IMG/VR virus record: IMGVR_UViG_3300045988_122545
Coordinates: 1 to 64,000 of that record
Length of the DNA: 64,000 nt
DNA from: a virus
Direction: 5' to 3' (one strand)
Shown here: piece by piece, positions 2,785 through 56,827 of the stretch
How positions within the stretch are numbered: position 1 is the first letter of the stretch
How the letters are laid out: the number at the start of each line of letters is the position of its first letter
Position numbers and translations under genes: made by a program
Notes under the pieces: generated by a model
The model's input: only the letters and a program-made list of their open reading frames with translations
Databases searched by the model: none
What the model was told of the DNA's origin: nothing

Positions 2785-5700
2785 TTATTTACCTTTACAT
2801 TTATTTTTAACTATTTCTCCTAAAGCGTTCATATCATTTAAGAATGAATCGTCTATAGGATTAGATATATTCAAATCCCCAGTATCTACAGTATTAACTT
2901 GTTTAACAGCACTTTCAATTAAAGCGGACATATCTGTAAATATATCAGCTTCATTTTGTAAAACTTCAGGTATGTTTTCTGTCATATTATTTGTTGCATC
3001 TCCAGTTGAAAAAATTTCTATACTTTCTGGAGACATATCCTATACATCAACAAAACCTGTGTAATCTGTAATCATAGAAGTATCTATACTAGAATATTCA
3101 TCGTATCCTGGATCTACATAAGTTTGACCTTGTTCTTTAGCTTCTACTGCATCGATTAATACGTCATCTATAATATTATAATTTAATATGTAGTTTTTAA
3201 CATCATCTTTTACATCATTTACTCTATTTTTACCCGATATATTCATGATTTTATCTACAATATTATCATTCTGTAATTTTATAGATTCTTGTATTTGTAA
3301 TCCGTCTATTAATGCTGCACTTGTTATATTGTTTTGTGGGAAAGCTGATATTTGTGTAGAACCGTTTACATACTCAAATATTCTAGTCCCATTATCTTCT
3401 ACTCCTAACTTAGGAGTAAGCAAATACACACTTCTAAGAGAACTTCTTATTTGAGATTCATCATCAGCTCTATTAAGCATTATTTCTCCAACCTTACGAT
3501 ATAATTCACCATTAACGTTTATATATCTGTCTTTGGTATTTTTAGTCATAAATAATACTCTCTTTCTAGATCCATCAGGAGCAATAAATAAGGTCATATC
3601 ACCGTTATTATCATATTTATAAGGCTTTACTATTTCTTTATTATACCACATATTTCTTGCTATTGTAGTAGAAATAGATGGATAATATCCAGATTTAGGA
3701 TCATCTATAGATTCAGCAACCATCTGACCAGCTACAGAATTAACATCACCAAAATCTTCTAAAGCTTTTCTGAATTCAGTAGTATACCCTTTCTTTATCT
3801 TCCAACTAACTGGTACCAAATTAAAGAAATTATTTACCGAATTATTATCGTATGTTGAAAAGTAAGCATACATAGCTAAATCTTCTGCAAAATCTCTGAT
3901 AAATTCATCTTCATGATTTAATAAATCGTCAAACGCAGATATTAATACGTTTTCTGTATATTTATCATTATTCATTGATGAATTAGATAATATTACTTTA
4001 TCTAACATTGTTTTAGTACCATCAGCTGAATATTCTTGTAAATAATTAAGTAACGCATTTTTAATAGTTCCTGTATTCTTATCAATAAGTGTAGGATAAT
4101 TATCTTTTTCCTCTAGAATATAACGTTTAATTGCAGTTAATCTTCTACACATTGTATCTGGACCAATAAACATATCATATAATTTATCTCCATCAATATT
4201 AAAATTAGGATTATTGGCAGCAATTCTTGCTCTAATTACAGATTCCAATGCTTTATTTATTTGAACAACATATTCCTAATCATTTGTATATTGATATTGA
4301 GAATCATCTTCAGATGGACCAACAAAAGTACGCATAACATTAGTATGTATATCCTCATATTCTTTTGTTGCAACAATAGATTGTTTTCTAAGAATGGTTC
4401 TAGGTAATGTTAAACCGTAATACAATTTCTTACCTAAGAATGTAACTTGCATATAATATTCTATTGGAGTTTGATTTTCTATTAATACAGCTTTACTATC
4501 ATTTATGTAGAATATATCTTCATTCTCTTTAGAGAAAGTAGAAACCATATTTTTAAAATTCATTTGAACAGCAAGATTGTTACCATATTTCTTAGTATCG
4601 ATCTAAGATATTTTTACAAGTTTTGCTAATCGTTTAGCATCTGAATTTAACTCTTTATATGCTTTCATTACAATCAACTGCTAATAAGCATATTCAGCGC
4701 TAGTCTTACTTGCTTTTAAAGCATTTTTCAGTTTTGATTCATCAAATACCCAATCATATTGAATATTAGTTATATTTGCGTCATTCATCTGACCAATAGG
4801 TTTCATCTTACTATATGGTCTTTCTCTTAACCAACCATTATACAATTTTATATATTTCTATTTTTCACTTCCATCAGGCATTATGTTAATAGCGTCATAC
4901 AATACTTTCTCATATCGCTGATAATATTTATTTATAACTTTTGCTTCGGTTATAGTAGGATCTACACCATATACACCCCTGTTTGCGATTTGCTCAGCTG
5001 CATACATTTTTAATATATCTTGGGCTAAGAAATAGAATGTTGACTATCCTTTACCGCCTCGCAATAATAAGTTAGTCATGTTATATGTAATCTAATTAAC
5101 ATTTAATGCGATGATATATGGATCTTTTGCAACGTCAACGTGAGCGTTAATCATTGCAGATAACCAGTCTAATATTCTAAATCCGTCTTGTCCTTTTATA
5201 GCATCAAGATTTCCAAGATTATATCTATTACCGTTAGCATAATTCATACACAAATGTGCAAATTGTGTTAATGCATGGTTTGTAGAATTCAATGCAAACG
5301 GAGCAATACCTGCTTTACCACTGGTATATTCTATTTTTCTAGATAATTGGAACGATGGTAATAAAGCGTAACCAGGTTTAGCTTCTGCTAATACGGAAGG
5401 CATAACTAATTTTAATACGTCTTTCTTTAAGAAAGAAGTAAGTGTATCGATTGATGCTTTAGTTTCAGCCATATTGTTTTCGTCAGAAATACACATCATC
5501 TAATATTCCAACATACGATTTGTTATAGCTTCCTTACTTTGCTTATAGAAATCTACATTCTCATCATATTCTACTTTTTTACCGTTTTCAAAATCATATA
5601 TAGCTATATACAATTTATCAACGTCAAAGTCAGAACCAGTCATAGCGGTAAATCCATCTGGAACAACTATTGTATCAGCATAAGTTTCTGGTAATACATC

Positions 5701-48890: not shown

Positions 48891-51347
48891 TTACTTCTCA
48901 CCTGCGACCTTATTCTTGATTGCGGTACGAGCTTTTAATTTTTCACGTTCCATTGCAGCATCATTATTCATCTTTTGAAGTTGAGTTTCATGCTTCATAC
49001 GGTCACGTTCCAACTACATCTTTTTATTTTCAATTTGTTTCTTATTCTCTGAATCTCTTAATTTAGCATTAAGCTCCATTTGTTTTGCAGATTCGTCTGC
49101 AATTTGTTTTCTTTCAGCCAATGCTTGTTGTGCAATTTCCATTACATCAGGAATACCATTATCATTCTGATCTAAGTCTTGTAAACCTTTATATGCATTT
49201 AATTGTGCAACAGTAATCTTAGTTTGAGAATCTGTATCAATCTTATACTTTTCTAATTCGAGTTCTGCTTCTTTAAGCATAAGTTCTTCTTCTTTAACTC
49301 TATTCTGTTCAGCAATCAATTGTTGTTGAGCTTCCTGCTCAGCTTGTTGTTGCTGTTGCATTTGTTCCATACGTTTCTGTTCAATATCTTCAAGTCTATC
49401 TTTAATCATATTAATGTTATCCATTGTAATAATTTCTGCGATATCTAACAGGCTTGCTCCATTTTGCATAGCAGGTTGTAACAACTGTTTTAACTGATCT
49501 AAGTCTTGTCTATTCTTTGTACTATCTTCTACAAACACATCCATATCTGAATAGAAGAAATCATCTGATAAAGTAATGAAAGCTCTAGTAGCATCATCTA
49601 AGATATAGTTAAGACATGTTTTATTATCTTTCCATGCTACCTTAGCGGTATCCAATAACATTGTTAAAACTTCTTTTTTGACCTGATTGTGTGTCCAAAA
49701 CCACGGTTCGGTAATATGATACGACTGAGTAATAGCTTGTGTGGTATTACCTACCAATTCGCTTGCCGCAATGGATCCTTGTCTCTGTGGAGTAATACCA
49801 GTCAATTTGGCTACCATATCTTCAATCTTAGCCATAAGATTAACATACTGATCAATTATATTAGCCATACTTAAATCCCATGACTGGAACTGATTAAATG
49901 CTGCTGGTCTACCACCTTCTCTACCCGGAACATCCCATCCTTCTTCATAAGGATTGATAAATGCTACACCTAATGCTCCTAAGTAATGCATCCATTTGTT
50001 TACATCAATACCCATAGATTTCGGTATCTGAGTAACATCTACTACAGGTACTTTACCTTTATCTCTGGACATAGCCAATTCTAATCGATACCAAACTACA
50101 ATATACATATACTGTAACGGTTTCATCATACTGACCAAAGATCTAGGTTTACTATTAGTATTATTATAAAGTACACCAGTATACGGTAATTTTGATGAAT
50201 TAGGATTATCTGCAGATATGTGTTGATATTCCAAAGGTTGAATTCCGATATATAAATCATCACCAATTCTATAACCTTCCCATACTTCTATAATCCATTT
50301 CCAATCAACAGATTCTTCTTCACCAGTTACTTTGTAATCTTCATCTACTTGATATTCTTCTACTTCTCCAGTTTCTTCATTTATCAAAGTAACAAATCCA
50401 ATCTTCTTAAAAGATTTCCAACAACAATGATAAACTGTAATTTGATCGGTATCAAATGGATTATCAGTAAAACTATTCAATTTATGAAGTTTTACGTGAT
50501 TATAATCCAATTCGGATTTACCTACTTGAGGAGTCATACCTGAACCTGGTTTTTCATCGATTAATTCAAGTAACTCGTTTAATTGTTTTTCTGACATCTT
50601 ATCATAGAAGCGATCATATATTTCTGTTGCAGACATAATCATCTTTCTACAACACCATGCTGCATCGTGAATATATTCCAAATCTACAGATTTTTCATAG
50701 TCGAAATACATCGGATTAACTCTTTCTACATAAGGTTGTCCGTTACGAATACCAACATAATATATTTCCTCGCCACCGATTAAAGCATCTTTCCATCCTT
50801 TATAAAATTCGTGAGGAAGATTCAATTTACGTTTCAAATACTATAATGTATGATAAGCTGTTCGTTCTGCGATATCTTTGTAATCTTTAGTTAAATACTT
50901 CTGTATTGCTTCTGGTTGCATTACTTCACCAGTTTGTAAAGCGTCTTGATATCTTTGAGCATTCTCTGGACTCAATTTAGCCATTATACTAGACTGTATA
51001 TAGTCCATTAACATTTGTTTAGCTTTCTCTTGCAATTCACTAGTAGCTTCATCACTAGTTCTACATACTTGAAAATTAAATGAACGTTTTGTTTCTTCAC
51101 CTAATAATTGGTCGATATAAGGTTTAATTATATTATAATCTTGAGCTGTTGCTGGAAATCCATCTTGTTGTTTAAACGGATTAGTAACATATTTCAAATC
51201 TCTTTCATCATATATACTATTATAAAGATCATAATATGTTTGCATTTCCGAAGCTCTCTCGCTATTAAAACCACTATGACCAGTATTACCAGATCCTGCT
51301 ATATAATCAACACAAGCTTCTTTCCAATCCTAATTCTTCTTAGACAT
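48891..51347 (-). CDS. Portal protein (about 818 aa), 3 in-frame TAG
   Basis: Pieces 50841..51245 and 49014..50837 are in one frame joined by TAG 50838. The N-terminus extends through one TAG to ATG 51345-51347. The C-terminus extends through TAG 49014 to TAA 48891 (all phase-checked). It is immediately downstream of TerL and has a long Q/E-rich C-terminal coiled coil. Confidence 0.7.
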
Positions 51348-51412
51348 TGGTAATTTTTGTGGTGGAAATGATTTTAAATCTTTCATAATTAATTAGTAAA
51401 TGTATATACATT

Positions 51413-54400
51413 ATCATCGTCAAACTTTACTGGACTTTCGTCATCAAACCAATTTTGCGCAAATATTGGTCCATCAAAAAGTAAACGACTCTTATTTTCT
51501 TTTTCTTTTTCTTTTACTACTACATTAAATAATTGTTCACGATAAATCATTACCTACATCAGAGCCATGACTCTATCGGTATTTATTATATCGTTGTATG
51601 CAATTAATTCCTCTAGTAATGGTTCAGATAATATGTTGTATAAGTTCTTTTTGCCATCAGCATTTATATCATTCAACCAGTCTTTTATTAATCCTTCACC
51701 CCAAGCTTTAATTGATTTATTCATATGGCAACCTTTCTTTCTCTGTACTTTAGAATTACCAACAATATCATTGATTATATCTGGTTGATCTGCTAGTAAA
51801 TAATCACAATGTTTGTTAGCAAAGTAAACGAATAAGCCTTTATTCTGATTTTCATACATTGCTCTGGCATTATAGTATATCAACAACTTACGAACATTTT
51901 CGTAGAAATCATCTGCTGCTTGAGGTCTACCAGTATATTCTGCAACAATTATATCTGAATAAGATTCTATATTCTATATTCTTTTATATATGATACACGA
52001 ACCTAATGAATTTGTTCCTGACTAATCATGGTCATATGGGTCAATTCCTGCAATATATAAACCAAATGGTGCATCTTTCATAGGATGTTCCCATATAACT
52101 ATAGAACCAGTAGGATCATCATCTTTATTTAGAGGATAATGTGTAATATCTCCTGTCTTTTTAATTACCCAACTAATATTTCCATCAGGTGTTTGTACTA
52201 AATCACCTATTTGTTTATGATTCTATAGCTGTTTATTTGTACGTATTCTAGCCAACTATTCCTATAGCTCTTTCTTAGGAAATATGTTTCCTCCAAATTC
52301 CAAACAAGCTTCTGCTGGAGTAATACATCTTTCACAAACATACCTATCTACTGCTACTGAATTAGTAGCATTTTGTATCATTTCTTTACGTTGCTCCAAT
52401 ATAAAATCTAGAGAAGGTTTACGTAATGTATTACCATCATTATCCATATAAATACGATTACATTTATCATCTCTAATATCCATATTAGCGTACTATGGTA
52501 TAAAGAATCCACACGTACTAGTTACTGCATTTTCATCCCATATATTCTATAATTCTACACAGTTATATCCTTTTGGTTTATAGAACATATCTTTCAATGT
52601 AGCAAAGTTTGATTCTTCATCTCCACCAGTATTATGTGTTACAATACCATTTACAATATAATTATGCTGTTCTTTAGCAGTAATGTTATATATATCTTGT
52701 ATACCGATATCTGTTATATTTGTGATTTTATCTGCAACTATTCCACAAAGATATTTATTATATTTTGGTAACTCGGACTGAATAAATAAATAAATTAAAT
52801 CCAGTGCTGCTGATTTTCTAGAAACTGTTAATTTTATATGTTGAGAAAATCTACCTAGACTTACCACATCAGCAATTTCTAATCGATATTCGCCGTTTTT
52901 ATCAGAAATAAAATGATCCTTGTATTTCCTAATTCTATTAGTAGGTTTAATATAACGAATAATCCCATGTATACCAAAATGCAACAACGCTTCTTGTACC
53001 TAAAGTAATATGTCTTTCTAACACTACGTTAATACTATTCTGGCTCGTTTTTTACTAAAGTGTATGTACCCATCAGTATCGTATAATCCGCCAATTAATT
53101 CACTTATTGTATATTCATCATAACTATTGAAATCTATAGGCAGACGTTTATTACCTTTAGTTTGTCCATATATACCTAATTTTCTTAGCTATTTGCATAT
53201 TCCTTTTATACGGATTTCTTGATAATTCTTATTATCTTTAGTAGTATATTGTTTTTCAATAACTGTATCGAAATGAGAATGAACATAATCTAATATTTCC
53301 TATTCGCAATTACTTAGTATGGGCGTTTTATTATTTCCATAGCTTCCGTCGCCTATTAACCATCCTATAAATCTAGGTTCCCACATTACGTTTTTGCCAA
53401 ATATAGGGATCTAATCTATCAAACCTACTTGGTCTCCTATTTTACATTTTTGTGCTTCGTGCCATAACCAAGACTTCATACGTTCGTTTTCAAATCTTTT
53501 TCCAGAAACACGTTTTGTCCTACCAGGAGTAGACCATAATAAAGGATGGTCTTTACTACATCTTATTGTTCTACCCGATTGTAATTCTATTTGAACACAT
53601 TCTTTCTATGATATCGGATTAATGTTTTCTATGTTTTGTATAGACGCCTGATAGGTATCCCATCCAATTATACCATCTTCTTGTTTTAAATTCTCTATAT
53701 TAATACAATTACCGTCTGATGTCCATACTCTAGATCCTTTGCACACACATCCAAATGCTATCATGGTACCAAATGCTACACCATCAACTTCAACAGACGG
53801 TCTAGCAATTTGCCATGCTGCACCTAATTCTTTAAATGAACCAGCTTCTTCGAATAAGATTAGTTTTGCTTTCTTACCACGGACTATATCAGGATTATCC
53901 TTAAGAGTAACACCAATTATTTCTGATTTATAACCTAATTCTACTTCATTACCAAATTCATCTTTAGTAAAGAATCCAGCTCTTTTACGCATTGCTGTAT
54001 TAACAGATCTTTTCTTACCCCATGCAGTATTCTTATCGATAAAGTCCATGTAATCCCACGCTTTAGTAAGAATACCATCATCTGTTAAGTATTGTTTATT
54101 TGAAGCATATACATAGGATTTAGAATTAGGAATAAGGTAGTAATTACGACATAACATAGAACCACCTTTATAACTATTATGAGTGGGTATAAAATCTTTT
54201 GTTATATATAAATGATTTTCGTTATCGATGCATAAGCATCGTTGTTTTTCAAATTTGCCAGTTCTACGAATTGCTTTTATTCCGATACCATTATAATTAT
54301 ACTTTCTATCTTTACGAATTTTCTCCAATTTTCTAGGAAGTTTAAAGATATCTTCTTGTGTAGTAATACACAATTCCCAATGAGGTAAAGTATTAGATTT

Positions 54401-55609
54401 GCAACCGTTATTAAATTCTACTCCAAATCTACCTTCTATTTCTTTAGATTTGTGACATCTTATACCGAGACTTCTTAATACAAATTGTAAATCATCAATT
54501 AATTGTTCTGAAGTTGATACGAACGTAGAAGCGCCATTTGTAATGCTACCGTCAGTATCCATTAAACCTCGTACCAATTCAAATCGATTTTCAACAGAAG
54601 TGTATTTGTAATTTTCAGGAATAAATTTTTTATTTGCTTTTACTTTTATTCCTAATTTTTTTAATTCTCTATTTAAATTATTATGTTTTTTATCTTTTGA
54701 TATTATTACGTAAGCATATTTATCGGATTCTATTTTTTTAATAATATAATCTGGTAATCTACGTGATAACTCTTCTACGATAAATTGATCGGCTGTAGAA
54801 AATCTAACTTGTGATCCACATATGTATCCATCTCCTAGTAATACACCTAATACATAAGGATCAATGTGTATTGGTTTTTCATCAAATCGTAAAGGATTTA
54901 TAGCAGGTACTTTATAAGGATAATGCTCTTTTCCTTTTGAACCTTGTGTTAATTTGCGTTTAGCATATTCTTTAGTAGGCATTATATAAAATTTCTTACC
55001 GTTTCTGCACGTAGCCCATAAATGATTAGCTCCGCATCTAACAACACGACCATCTTGAAATTCAACTTCGTATACTTCTTGAATACCTTGTTCTACAATA
55101 TCTCCAATTTTAACAGGACTACCGTTAGGATTCATTACCATATCACCAACTTTTAAAGATCCCATTTGAACAAAACCGTTCGGCGTTAATACTTCTTCAG
55201 AATAAGGTTGTTCATATCCTTTACGTCTACTTTTAAGTACGCATAAATGCTTACCTGATTCCTCAGCATCCTAGATGGTTTGAAAATAAAAATAGTCGTA
55301 ATCCCAGAAATCAGGGAATGCGACTTCCTAGACAGTCACGATTTTATCTTTACCATGTCTGTCTTTTATCTTCTTATTTACAGATCTATTAATAGGACAA
55401 AAGTTTAAATAGAAATAATTATAACCACTAATCCAATCTCCATCTTCTGCTGTATATCCTTCCAAACATCTACGTTTCTATTCATCCCAGTAAGAGAAAT
55501 ATTCTGAAGTATTAGATGCATAATTACAGTATTTACCTGTCTATTCAAACGTAATAGCTGGTTCTCTGAATTTATTACTATTTGCTATTTTTTTATTAAA
55601 GTCTACCAT
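51413..55609 (-). CDS. terL: Terminase large subunit interrupted by two inteins, about 17 in-frame TAG
   Basis: Pieces 53606..55165, 52547..52987, 52262..52483 and 51554..51886 are all in one frame. ATG 55607-55609 and TGA 51413-51415 were phase-checked. The exteins carry CVLKSRRKG (P-loop-like), KLILFEEAGSF (Walker-B-like), IAFG|TGGDEES across intein 2, and AGIDPYDHD (nuclease-like). Confidence 0.8.
52631..53749 (-). mobile_element. TerL intein 2 (canonical class 1) with a LAGLIDADG homing endonuclease, containing in-frame TAG codons
   Basis: It starts FG|CVCKGSRVWTSDG (Cys at 53747-53749). Block B is GRTIRCSKDHPLL. LAGLIDADG motifs are IGWLIGDGSYG and LIGGLYDTDGY. It ends NGIVTHN|TGG (52631). 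The length is 1119 nt, in phase. Confidence 0.75.
54176..55213 (-). mobile_element. TerL intein 1 with a LAGLIDADG homing endonuclease. Candidate class 3 intein (no Cys/Ser at position 1).
   Basis: Hint block A-like EQPYSEEVLTPNGF. Block B GRVVRCGANHLW has Trp two residues after His. LAGLIDADG motifs LGVLLGDGY and LVRGLMDTDGS. Block F QRCLCIDNENHLYI. The C-terminus is IPTHN|S (54176). The N-terminal boundary is approximate. Confidence 0.65.
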
Positions 55610-55624
55610 TACTGCGCGCTTATT

Positions 55625-55660
55625 AAAAAACTCCCTACCGATAAAGGAAGGGAGTTTTTG
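55625..55660 (-). terminator. Intrinsic terminator-like hairpin (A-run / stem / T-run, bidirectional) ending about 15 nt upstream of the TerL ATG
   Basis: Minus strand reads CACAAAAACTCCCTTCCTTTATCGGTAGGGAGTTTTTTAATAAGCGCGCAGTAATG. Confidence 0.65.
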
Positions 55661-55738
55661 TGAGTATTTATTTTCTTATCTAAAAATTTACACTATGAAA
55701 GTTTTGATAACTTTTTAAATTTTTCATTTAACTTGTAG

Positions 55739-55806
55739 TTCCACAGGTTGGGCTTGAACCAACATCACCGTTCCCTATGGACGTGACTTACTTAGTCGAC
55801 TGTGGA
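55739..55806 (-). ncRNA. tRNA-like element (68 nt) with normal acceptor, D and T arms but an aberrant anticodon arm
   Basis: Acceptor TCCACAG/CTGTGGA is perfect. D arm is GACT-AAGTA-AGTC. T arm is GTTGG-TTCAAGC-CCAAC, followed by discriminator A. The anticodon arm CGTCC-AUAGG-GAACG has a C.A mismatch and only a 5-nt loop (or a 3-bp stem with the 9-nt loop CCAUAGGGA). No canonical U33/anticodon register exists. Confidence 0.5.
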
Positions 55807-55876
55807 TAATAGAATATGTTGATTAATTTTTATTTTTTATGACAAAAACTTTTTTCAAAAAATTTTATATTTTTTG

Positions 55877-55964
55877 TCGCGGTGGTAGGAGTCAAACCCA
55901 CCCGGTCGGCTTCAGAAGCCACACTGTTTTAGAGACAGTCCATGCAATCGTACATCACACCGCG
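55877..55964 (-). tRNA. Amber-suppressor tRNA (anticodon CUA) with class II architecture (21-nt variable region)
   Basis: Acceptor CGCGGTG/CACCGCG. D arm ATGT-ACGATT-GCAT. Anticodon stem ACTGT/ACAGT with loop C-U-C-U-A-A-A (U33, CUA, A37). Variable arm GGCTT-CTG-AAGCC. T arm GTGGG-TTTGACT-CCTAC. Discriminator A. No encoded CCA. Confidence 0.85.
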
Positions 55965-56090
55965 TAACCGGAGTTCTTTAAAGTCTACTCCGAAAAGACT
56001 ATTTTAACCCATAACCAAAAAATACCTAGTTTATGAAAACTATTTCATTTATAACGTTAAAAAAGTGTATCGACAATCGTCGAAAATTAA

Positions 56091-56237
56091 TTAAAGACCT
56101 AACATGCGTTTAAACCAGTTCTTCTTAGGTAAACCAAGTTGTTTACGCGCATTCAAATCTGCTTCAATAGCAGCATTAATTTCCCAAACTGTAACGCAAT
56201 TTGTCAAATCCAAAATATAAGTATCATTCTTTTTCAT
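56091..56237 (-). CDS. Hypothetical small protein (48 aa)
   Basis: Read base by base from ATG 56235-56237 to TAA 56091-56093: MKKNDTYILDLTNCVTVWEINAAIEADLNARKQLGLPKKNWFKRMLGL. It is the last standard-code gene before the tRNA junction. Confidence 0.55.
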   Translation of the reverse strand: MKKNDTYILDLTNCVTVWEINAAIEADLNARKQLGLPKKNWFKRMLGL

Positions 56238-56299
56238 AGTTTCTTTATTATTTTTTATTTTAAAAACGTTTTGTTAAAAGTATGTTTCAGTATGTTGTA

Positions 56300-56827
56300 T
56301 TATCTATCCAACTCGTATGCATTTATCTGAGCATTACCTCTAACTTTAGTATTCTCTAACTCTTCAGCTTTAACAGCTTTCTCAAGAAAATCTACTGTTT
56401 GAAATACAGCTTTAACCTTTTCCATACCAGCTAGCAATACTTGAATCTTCTTTTCATCCAACTCTTCACTAAGAGATTCTTCATAATATGTACTGATTGT
56501 ATCAATCTTATTACGCATTGCTTCCAGCATCTTCAAATTACGAGTATTAGATAATTCTTTATATTCGTCTCTACAAGCTTGTTCTTCTGGAGTAAGAGTA
56601 TAATTAGAATCACCAAATATCTTAATCTTTAAAGTGTTCTCTCTTATTTCTTTAACCATACTTTTAACATATGGACTATTCCAGTAATCACAAAGTATAA
56701 TAAAAGAAAGTACGTTATTCGCATGATTTTTATCTTTAGTAGATTCCCAATATTTTTTAAAAGGAGGTAAAGCAAGCATATCTGCATGTATAGTTACTTT
56801 ACCACCAAGTATATCAAACAGCTTCAT
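56300..56827 (-). CDS. Hypothetical protein (175 aa)
   Basis: Intact ORF with a TAA stop and no TAG. Its start overlaps the upstream stop. Confidence 0.8.
   Translation of the reverse strand: MKLFDILGGKVTIHADMLALPPFKKYWESTKDKNHANNVLSFIILCDYWNSPYVKSMVKEIRENTLKIKIFGDSNYTLTPEEQACRDEYKELSNTRNLKMLEAMRNKIDTISTYYEESLSEELDEKKIQVLLAGMEKVKAVFQTVDFLEKAVKAEELENTKVRGNAQINAYELDR

Follow-up and report, generated by a model that had tools for sequence, protein, structure and literature searches.

The question raised by this locus is how a large terminase subunit (TerL) can become active when its gene is interrupted twice, and how the first of the two insertions could splice with a glutamate as its first residue. 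The locus lies in a window of 64,000 nucleotides (positions 1 to 64,000 of the IMG/VR virus record IMGVR_UViG_3300045988_122545), which, judged by its sequence, comes from a crAss-like phage with TAG recoding that belongs to the Suoliviridae (a family of the order Crassvirales, known as the 'Delta' group of crAss-like phages). We found that TerL is very probably made as a precursor of 1406 amino acids (aa) with two independent mobile LAGLIDADG inteins, the first of which (intein 1) sits in the apparent ATPase P-loop and belongs to class 3. An earlier reading of the same letters, here called the original prediction, had proposed both the two inteins and the class 3 (WCT-type) character of the first.

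The gene is one frame on the − strand, running from the ATG at 55609 to the TAA at 51389, with no TAA or TGA inside and with 19 in-frame TAG codons. The range given at first, 51413-55609, was right at its upper end; at the lower end the true stop at 51389 lies 24 nt further. With TAG read as Gln the precursor has 1406 aa, and removal of residues 133-478 and 621-993 leaves a product of 687 aa. This spliced product matches phrog_6681 (terminase large subunit) with 2e-154 and can be aligned end to end with the TerLs of Suoliviridae, with identities reaching 74%. Four contigs on record encode exactly the 1406-aa precursor of the window.

The boundaries of both insertions could be read from natural alleles. 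Intein-free alleles have the sequences …LKSRRKGY^SYKGG… and …MIAFG^TGGDEES… (the caret marks the insertion point) and fix both junctions exactly. Such TerLs are found in cr115_1 and cr60_1 (74% identity) and, within the same phage species, as 687-aa alleles of 97-99% identity (P0114, P0116 with 99%, and about 20 further clusters). Alleles of 1033 aa (687 + 346; P0136, P0139, P0143 and others) carry intein 1 alone, and an allele of 1060 aa (687 + 373; P0237) carries the second intein (intein 2) alone. Since the intein-free and the single-intein alleles agree, the intein boundaries are exact, and no shifted boundary of either intein reproduces the empty-site sequence. Together with the domain matches, these alleles establish that TerL holds two LAGLIDADG inteins. 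Intein 1 had been placed at about 54176-55213; this interval proved exact and corresponds to residues 133-478 (Glu133 to Asn478), with Ser at +1. Intein-free alleles had also been proposed as the check on the N-terminal junction, and they place it between Tyr132 and Glu133, even when the allele is from the same species and 99% identical. Residue 1 is thus Glu, as expected, and it aligns with the Ala1 that directly follows the P-loop Lys in relatives of intein 1. Overall, no fewer than 23 protein clusters contain intein 1, and the contigs behind them reach 93-99 kb, which is near-genome length.

The same alleles bear on the idea that the protein splice junction differs from the DNA boundary, for example that splicing starts at Ser5 (EQPY^SEEV…) by a class 1 route, with the P-loop keeping four additional residues. 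Counted from the N-terminus of intein 1, Ser5 is the first residue that could act as a nucleophile, and it is close to that end. However, EQPY is absent from the intein-free alleles, and the resulting GYEQPYSYKGG would be a four-residue insertion in the nucleotide-binding loop. In the register of block A, Gly13 and V-L-T-P match relatives in which the P-loop Lys is followed at once by residue 1 (Ala in most cases), and position 5 of these relatives is mostly Asp or another non-nucleophile (AQPLD…). Moreover, the WCT triplet co-varies with a non-nucleophilic residue 1 (PMC2807308). We therefore consider a start at Ser5 highly improbable.

The continuity of the frame speaks to a second alternative, in which the 1038-nt insertion is removed as an RNA intron that encodes a LAGLIDADG endonuclease. 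Many group I introns with homing endonucleases have been described in Delta-group crAss-like phages (PMC7886860), and related TerL genes have a probable intron beside another intein. Yet the insertion is in frame with both exteins and free of TAA and TGA, complete Hint blocks A, B, F and G wrap the endonuclease, and the last residues of the insertion are His-Asn, with Ser next to them. Purifying selection acts on the Hint parts, and no Rfam intron match was obtained within 51000..56500. An RNA intron at this site thus deserves practically no credence.

By the definition of Tori et al. (2010, PMC2807308), a class 3 intein has a non-nucleophilic residue 1, the WCT triplet and, at +1, either Thr or Ser. 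Because its first residue is Glu, intein 1 cannot make the usual N-terminal (thio)ester, and it displays every sequence feature of class 3. Its best sequence matches in the PDB are 6BS8/6OWN (Msm DnaBi1, E = 4.6e-10), followed by 6RIX/6RIY (MchDnaB1, 1e-9). It has been shown that 6BS8 is the class 3 intein Msm DnaBi1 with the catalytic C118 and that 6RIX/6RIY represent M. chimaera DnaB1, likewise class 3 (PMC6195587, PMC7664689). On 6BS8, H64-L-W66 of intein 1 aligns with H65-Q-W67, which puts the predicted Trp at B:12; R-C326 falls on R-C118; and P-T344-H345-N346 falls on P-T137-H138-N139, so that the Thr seen before His-Asn in IPTHN^S indeed occupies G:5. The Cys that had been noticed in block F (QRCLCIDNENH) is present as well, with the correction that position F:4 is the first Cys of RCLC, C326. 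Its second Cys was considered for F:4 and is disfavoured by the distance to the HLY motif and by the 6BS8 alignment.

We counted the family columns in a jackhmmer alignment of about 100 relatives of intein 1. Trp at B:12 is found in 100 of 100 relatives, His at B:10 in 98/102 and Cys at F:4 in 95/98 (aligned to the first Cys of RCLC), while block G has Thr at G:5 in 92/96, His at G:6 in 94 and Asn at G:7 in 93. The +1 residue is Ser (46), Thr (42) or Cys (4) in 92/93. Residue 1 (n=93) is mainly Ala (66), followed by Glu (9), Gly (6), Asp, Gln and Phe (2 each), Met and Arg (1 each), with Ser or Cys in 4. Class 3 is defined by just this coupling of near-invariant W, C and T with a residue 1 that is no nucleophile. 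Relatives begin with the block A pattern AQPL(S/D)xx(I/V)LTPxG, and the LLGDG and MDTDG motifs of the endonuclease are invariant in a family alignment (GDG and DTDG columns). Along both the profile and the pairwise 6BS8 alignment, H64, W66, C326, T344, H345 and N346 are on class 3 columns; this was the comparison proposed for the class 3 assignment, and the assignment is supported by it.

Relatives of intein 1 occur in 866 GenBank phage records and in 113 metagenomic protein clusters, where their hosts are PhoH-like ATPases, helicases, terminases, DnaB and dCTP deaminases. Among the GenBank phage records we found no relative above 37% identity. An AF2 model of intein 1, built on a family alignment of 57 sequences, reached a pLDDT of 92.9 and a pTM of 0.92. 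As a whole the model matches full-length LAGLIDADG inteins (PI-SceI, E = 7e-17, TM 0.69) and also I-DmoI, and its best mini-intein fold matches, 6RIY (TMt 0.79) and 6BS8 (TMt 0.77), are both of class 3.

A non-nucleophilic residue 1 is also a trait of class 2, and intein 1 might therefore splice without its block F Cys: Ser+1 would attack the Tyr132-Glu133 bond directly, in a class 2-like manner, or another residue would start the reaction, and W, C and T would be structural only. A class 1 intein onto which WCT had been grafted did not splice, which means that the mechanism is not set by the triplet alone (PMC7664689). Against this, all known class 2 inteins are KlbA orthologues with Ala1, a directly attacking Cys+1, Ser at G:6 and no WCT (PMC2807308), while intein 1 has Glu1, Ser+1, His at G:6 and WCT. 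In addition, the homology with Msm DnaBi1 aligns C326 with a nucleophile that has been demonstrated, and the family has retained Cys at F:4 almost throughout. We regard a route that bypasses C326 as quite improbable.

The class 3 pathway of intein 1 would follow the steps that were established for MP-Be DnaB and Msm DnaBi1. The block F Cys326, aided by His64, Trp66 and Thr344, would attack the Tyr132-Glu133 bond, giving a thioester-linked block F branched intermediate. The N-extein would then pass to the side chain of Ser+1 (block G branched intermediate), Asn346 would cyclise and release intein 1, and an O-to-N shift would restore the KSRRKGYSYKGG P-loop. Intein 2 would splice by the standard class 1 route, with Cys1 and Thr+1, at AFG^TGG. 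Because both inteins interrupt apparent ATPase catalytic motifs, an active packaging motor would be obtained only after both have spliced.

The insertion of intein 1 within a P-loop-like KSRRKGY^SYKGG was predicted, and the site itself is fixed by the intein-free alleles; its identity as a Walker A motif is drawn from motif resemblance and from the sites used by relatives. In relatives of intein 1 the insertion point comes right behind the Lys of a GxxGxGK^[ST] or RQxGK^[ST] P-loop, and by sequence comparison the G-Y^S of K-S-R-R-K-G-Y-S would be the equivalent position in the crAss-like TerL. The Ser+1 of intein 1 would then be the P-loop Ser. The pattern KSxRxGYS is also present in λ gpA, as 76-KSARVGYS-83, which we checked directly in λ gpA and which we take to be a Walker A motif of the Lys-first type; a literature search for 'KSARVGYS' found no paper. 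The intein 2 site, AFG^TGG, lies about 33 residues past the Walker B-like LILFEE, a position which suggests that it is probably the ATPase coupling (C) motif. With the spliced TerL as query, Pfam gave no family at E ≤ 1 and a sequence search of the PDB gave no match at E ≤ 10.

A number of points weigh against a splicing-competent class 3 intein in the P-loop. Both the P-loop label of KSRRKGYS and the C-motif label of AFG^TGG stem from the resemblance to λ gpA and from the insertion sites of relatives. When we compared the crAss TerL alignment with spliced T4-type terminase exteins by hhalign, the probability was 0.4, which is not significant; this comparison paired the Walker B-like regions only (RGKKAKLILFEE with T4-type RGRTFNCVMLDE). 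The AF2 model of the intein-free P0114, built with 25 close homologues, has a pLDDT of 50.5 and is too poor for motif mapping; in this low-confidence model a strand-loop-helix at 121-145 is a hint. The −1 residue of intein 1 is Tyr, while it is Lys in 79 of the 90 resolved junctions of relatives. Homology is the ground for assigning both a block F branched intermediate and a need for C326, and Glu at position 1 is, to our knowledge, not represented among the class 3 inteins that have been assayed. In the prototype class 3 intein, substitutions of Pro1 reduced the splicing efficiency (PMC2807308). Moreover, Intein_splicing of Pfam stays below threshold on intein 1 (E = 0.12), where the LAGLIDADG domain alone is detected. 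Finally, individual contigs carry lesions. In L009 (~3660..3680) intein 1 has a frameshift after KEYMKR, with an 11-nt deletion-like gap, and in L011 a TAG replaces a conserved Trp codon of the intein 1 endonuclease. L010 (~2940) has an in-frame TGA at a conserved Leu of the extein. These lesions may be assembly errors, recoding or early decay.

The atypical Glu1, the weak Pfam match and the lesions would fit a decaying, non-splicing insertion, with carrier genomes that have a dead TerL, are defective or are assembly artefacts. The pattern of divergence argues against it. Among four full copies of intein 1, synonymous divergence is saturated (pS 0.6-0.8) versus a pN of 0.09-0.22, with the Hint and the endonuclease parts alike, and dN/dS is about 0.15 or less in both parts. 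Every copy of intein 1 at the TerL site opens with GY^EQPYSE; this includes the window, six metagenomic fragments with diverged exteins, L009-L012 and the same-species alleles. The two clearly divergent inteins that P0176 and P0186 carry in this position start in the same way. Glu1 and W/C/T have been retained in at least nine diverged TerL lineages, and a relative in a T4-type terminase (P0022) reads RQLGK^EQPYSAKV. Intein 1 is thus under strong purifying selection, and Glu1 is a selected residue and no lesion. Since TerL is essential and the insertion splits its presumed nucleotide-binding loop, this conservation argues for splicing. In the window no catalytic or LAGLIDADG residue has been lost, the intact 346-aa intein recurs in the clusters and long contigs named above and in diverged lineages, and the structural model is confident. 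We have very little reason to favour decay, and a class 3 intein that splices remains the reading that we prefer.

Two residues past C326 there is a second cysteine, C328 (54230..54238). Members of the crAss clade have the order C(F:4)-x-C, and 19/95 relatives have C-x-C(F:4). A redox switch through C326-L-C328 is conceivable by analogy with Msm DnaBi1, where the catalytic Cys forms a regulatory disulfide. One may go further and suppose that the crAss TerL lineage is a class 3 subtype fitted to a Lys-less (λ-type) Walker A motif, in which the carboxylate of Glu1, the C326-x-C328 redox pair or both would gate the first step. We consider this idea speculative and on the whole unlikely. If true, splicing would activate the terminase only under certain conditions, of redox state or pH for instance, as DnaBi1 is gated by its Cys48-Cys118 disulfide.

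Intein 2 was described as canonical, which fits most of its features. It begins with CVCKGSRV… and ends with …GIVTHN^T, and Pfam detects Intein_splicing (1.2e-10) and LAGLIDADG_3 (1.3e-11). The features of class 1 are all found, namely Cys1, S-K-D-H (Ser at B:7, His at B:10), His-Asn and Thr+1. In alignment with the class 1 Ssp DnaB mini-intein (1MI8), GRTIRCSKDH corresponds to GRTIKATANH and QDIYNITAKEQHNYIVNGIVTH to EEVFDLTVPGPHNFVANDIIVH. It departs from the canon in block F (IYNITA, 52670..52690), where Asn stands at F:4 in place of the usual Asp; this Asn is common to relatives in cr53_1 and Dulem virus 42. The latter (L008) has a related intein at the intein 2 site.

Four states of the TerL allele were found within one phage species, with an extein identity of 97-100%: P0114 (687 aa), P0139 (1033), P0237 (1060) and P0234 (1406). 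All four occur on contigs of near-genome length. Intein homing would explain why they coexist in one species, and such coexistence is the mark that continuing homing and loss leave. The endonuclease of each intein would cut empty alleles at the DNA level, whereby the intein is copied in. The partners of intein 1 also vary, as it stands alone in L009 and in the alleles of 1033 aa, is paired with another downstream intein in L010 and is paired with intein 2 in the window. Alleles that are occupied by intein 1 (window, L009, L011, L020-22) have AGT or AGC as the codon of Ser+1, whereas all 8 empty sites, among them the same-species L017-19 (TCT), have TCN; the flanks are otherwise near-identical. 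This suggests that the +1 codon is co-converted with intein 1, or that its two-base switch protects the occupied site. L010 is an exception, being occupied by intein 1 with TCT as the +1 codon. The features of the gene are collected in the table below.

Table 1. Features of the TerL locus, listed in the direction of transcription after the complete gene; the caret marks an insertion point, and motif names in the exteins follow from resemblance.
Feature	Position	Strand	Description
TerL (large terminase) precursor gene	51389..55609	−	1406 codons plus TAA stop; 19 in-frame TAG as Gln
Suppressor tRNA, anticodon CUA	55876..55964	−	found by ARAGORN; adjoins TerL upstream; Rfam match below threshold
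N-extein (aa 1-132)	55214..55609	−	ends …HLCVLKSRRKGY, first part of the Walker A-like motif; 4 TAG
Intein 1	54176..55213	−	346 aa; putative class 3 (WCT-type) Hint domain with inserted LAGLIDADG endonuclease; Glu1…Asn346; 0 TAG
Intein 1 block A, EQPYSEEVLTPNG	55175..55213	−	opens with Glu at residue 1 (GAA codon)
Intein 1 block B, GRVVRCGANHLW	55016..55051	−	His64 at B:10; Trp66 at B:12 (codon 55016..55018)
Intein 1 LAGLIDADG homing-endonuclease domain	54314..54898	−	Pfam LAGLIDADG_3, 5.9e-10
Intein 1 LAGLIDADG motif 1, PYVLGVLLGDGY	54824..54859	−	acidic residue intact
Intein 1 LAGLIDADG motif 2, RFELVRGLMDTDGS	54545..54586	−	acidic residue intact
Intein 1 block F, QRCLCIDNENHLYIT	54200..54244	−	Cys326 at F:4 (codon 54236..54238), predicted initiating nucleophile
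Intein 1 block G and residue +1, FIPTHN^S	54173..54193	−	Thr344 at G:5, His345 at G:6, Asn346 at G:7; Ser+1 codon AGT
Middle extein (aa 479-620)	53750..54175	−	SYKGG… via Walker B-like KLILFEEAG to …MIAFG; 0 TAG
Intein 2	52631..53749	−	373 aa, residues 621-993; class 1 LAGLIDADG intein; Cys1…Asn373; +1 Thr; 7 TAG
C-extein (aa 994-1406 and stop)	51389..52630	−	begins TGGDEES…, holds the nuclease domain; 8 TAG
Intein 1 empty site as DNA			…CGTAAAGGATAT^TCTTATAAAGGT…

The TAG codons are spread unevenly over these segments. As expected, none was counted in intein 1 or in the middle extein, and the number in intein 2, for which at least 5 had been given, is higher than this minimum. None of the 12 Gln codons of intein 1 is TAG, while outside it the gene uses TAG for 19 of 48 (p = 0.012 by Fisher's test). 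A TAG-free intein 1 is also found in same-species alleles with intein 1 only, which differ by 5% of their nucleotides. The copy of L009, however, has TAG at 8 of its 12 Gln codons, including codon 2, which rules out that the absence of TAG is a trait of the intein 1 lineage. A regulatory role of the TAG-free stretch could likewise be rejected, because the N-extein upstream of it holds 4 TAG codons and already needs the suppressor. The simplest reading, which is modestly supported, is that intein 1 arrived later in the species of the window, from a donor with little or no TAG use.

In TerL homologues the columns of the TAG codons are mostly Gln, including the conserved sites FIPQY, ELQEQL and ALMQVM. 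The tRNA with the anticodon CUA is required for reading the 19 TAG codons of TerL. This tRNA is the sole one in the window; it has 89 nt, a long variable arm and A73 as discriminator. Its shape is that of class II (Leu/Ser/Tyr-like) and unlike that of tRNA-Gln, yet Gln dominates the TAG columns of TerL.

Beyond the window, the TerL of Suoliviridae is a hotspot for inteins, with at least seven insertion sites (L003, L004, L005-L007, L008, L010; P0160, P0166, P0178, P0180). These are the P-loop GY^S, the Walker B-like FEEGG^, AFG^TGG, GDEG^, AEH^C, YIAG^(I/C)DPYDHD and the C-terminal FDR^. In L010 (~4989..5242), L006 and L007 the TerL frame breaks for about 250 nt right after the downstream intein (…THN^CDP) and resumes with DHDKSGT…. 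The break probably marks a small intron that has inserted only a few codons away from an intein; an Rfam scan at the frame break of L006, L007 and L010 gave no match. Free-standing genes for HNH, GIY-YIG and other homing endonucleases adjoin TerL in related phages (L001, L004, L020-L022) and add to the density of mobile elements.

Compared with known systems, intein 1 resembles Msm DnaBi1 and M. chimaera DnaB1 in His at B:10, Trp at B:12, Cys at F:4, Thr at G:5 and His-Asn, as well as in Ser+1 and, if KSRRKGYS is indeed a Walker A motif, in having this Ser as the P-loop Ser and in the kind of insertion point. The DnaB inteins are cellular mini-inteins without endonuclease, with Ala1 after the P-loop Lys, whereas intein 1 has an intact LAGLIDADG endonuclease, Glu1 after Tyr and a phage terminase as host. 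The regulatory Cys48 of DnaBi1 has no clear counterpart in intein 1, which has C328 instead. The class 3 prototype, MP-Be DnaB of Mycobacteriophage Bethlehem, is like intein 1 in being phage-borne, about 340 aa long and equipped with LAGLIDADG, and in having WCT, Thr/Ser at +1 and a non-nucleophilic residue 1, in its case Pro1 (PMC2807308). As MP-Be DnaB has Pro1 and Msm DnaBi1 has Ala1, residue 1 of class 3 is known to vary, and Glu is a further non-nucleophilic option. The P-loop inteins of PhoH-like ATPases, SF1/SF2 helicases, T4-type terminases and dCTP deaminases are 25-40% identical to intein 1 over the full length. They share with it the block A xQPLxxx(I/V)LTPxGW, HLW, C-I-x-V…HLY, (V/P)THN^(S/T) and the LAGLIDADG module. 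Mostly they have Ala1 after GK, while the crAss TerL clade has EQPY after GY, and P0022 has EQPY after RQLGK.

A study of 2010 placed most class 3 inteins in ATPase P-loops, the ATPases being helicases and the large terminases of phages (PMC2807308). They are frequent among the terminases of actinophages (PMC5050341), and 287 class 3 inteins, mostly in TerL and Cas4, have recently been described in these phages (bioRxiv 10.1101/2025.01.02.630785). The phage of the window differs in being a TAG-recoded member of the Crassvirales, which infect Bacteroidota. In mycobacteriophage TerL1, class 3 inteins occupy the sites c, d and e and not the P-loop sites a and b (PMC5050341). For the Delta group, Yutin et al. 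(2021) stated that the crAss-like TerL 'typically contains an intein' (PMC7886860). The cMAG OBYQ01000140 of the same group (PMC7886860, Fig. 7b) has its TerL as three in-frame fragments with two Hint-type inteins. Its likeness to the window is in the two-intein layout. Its TAG codons are in extein and intein parts, while in the window they are in intein 2 and the outer exteins only, and splicing classes or exact junctions are not given in that paper.

Hence, class 3 inteins in phage terminase P-loops (2010) and a TAG-recoded Delta-group crAss TerL with two inteins (2021) were already known. What appears to be new is minor: the class 3 assignment and the exact junctions in a Crassvirales TerL, Glu1, Tyr−1 and the four-state polymorphism. 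The current understanding of inteins or terminases is unchanged by these findings. They extend the range of the class 3 family to Crassvirales, with Glu at position 1 and Tyr at −1 being tolerated. The tolerance of junction residues is a practical limit in the engineering of class 3 inteins, and Glu1 and Tyr−1 bear on it. For annotation, our data provide exact splice junctions and the mature 687-aa TerL for very abundant phages of the human gut, in whose crAss-like genomes recoding, inteins and introns together routinely break gene calls. With four allele states in one species and at least seven TerL sites in the family, these phages lend themselves well to studies of how intein homing proceeds in nature.

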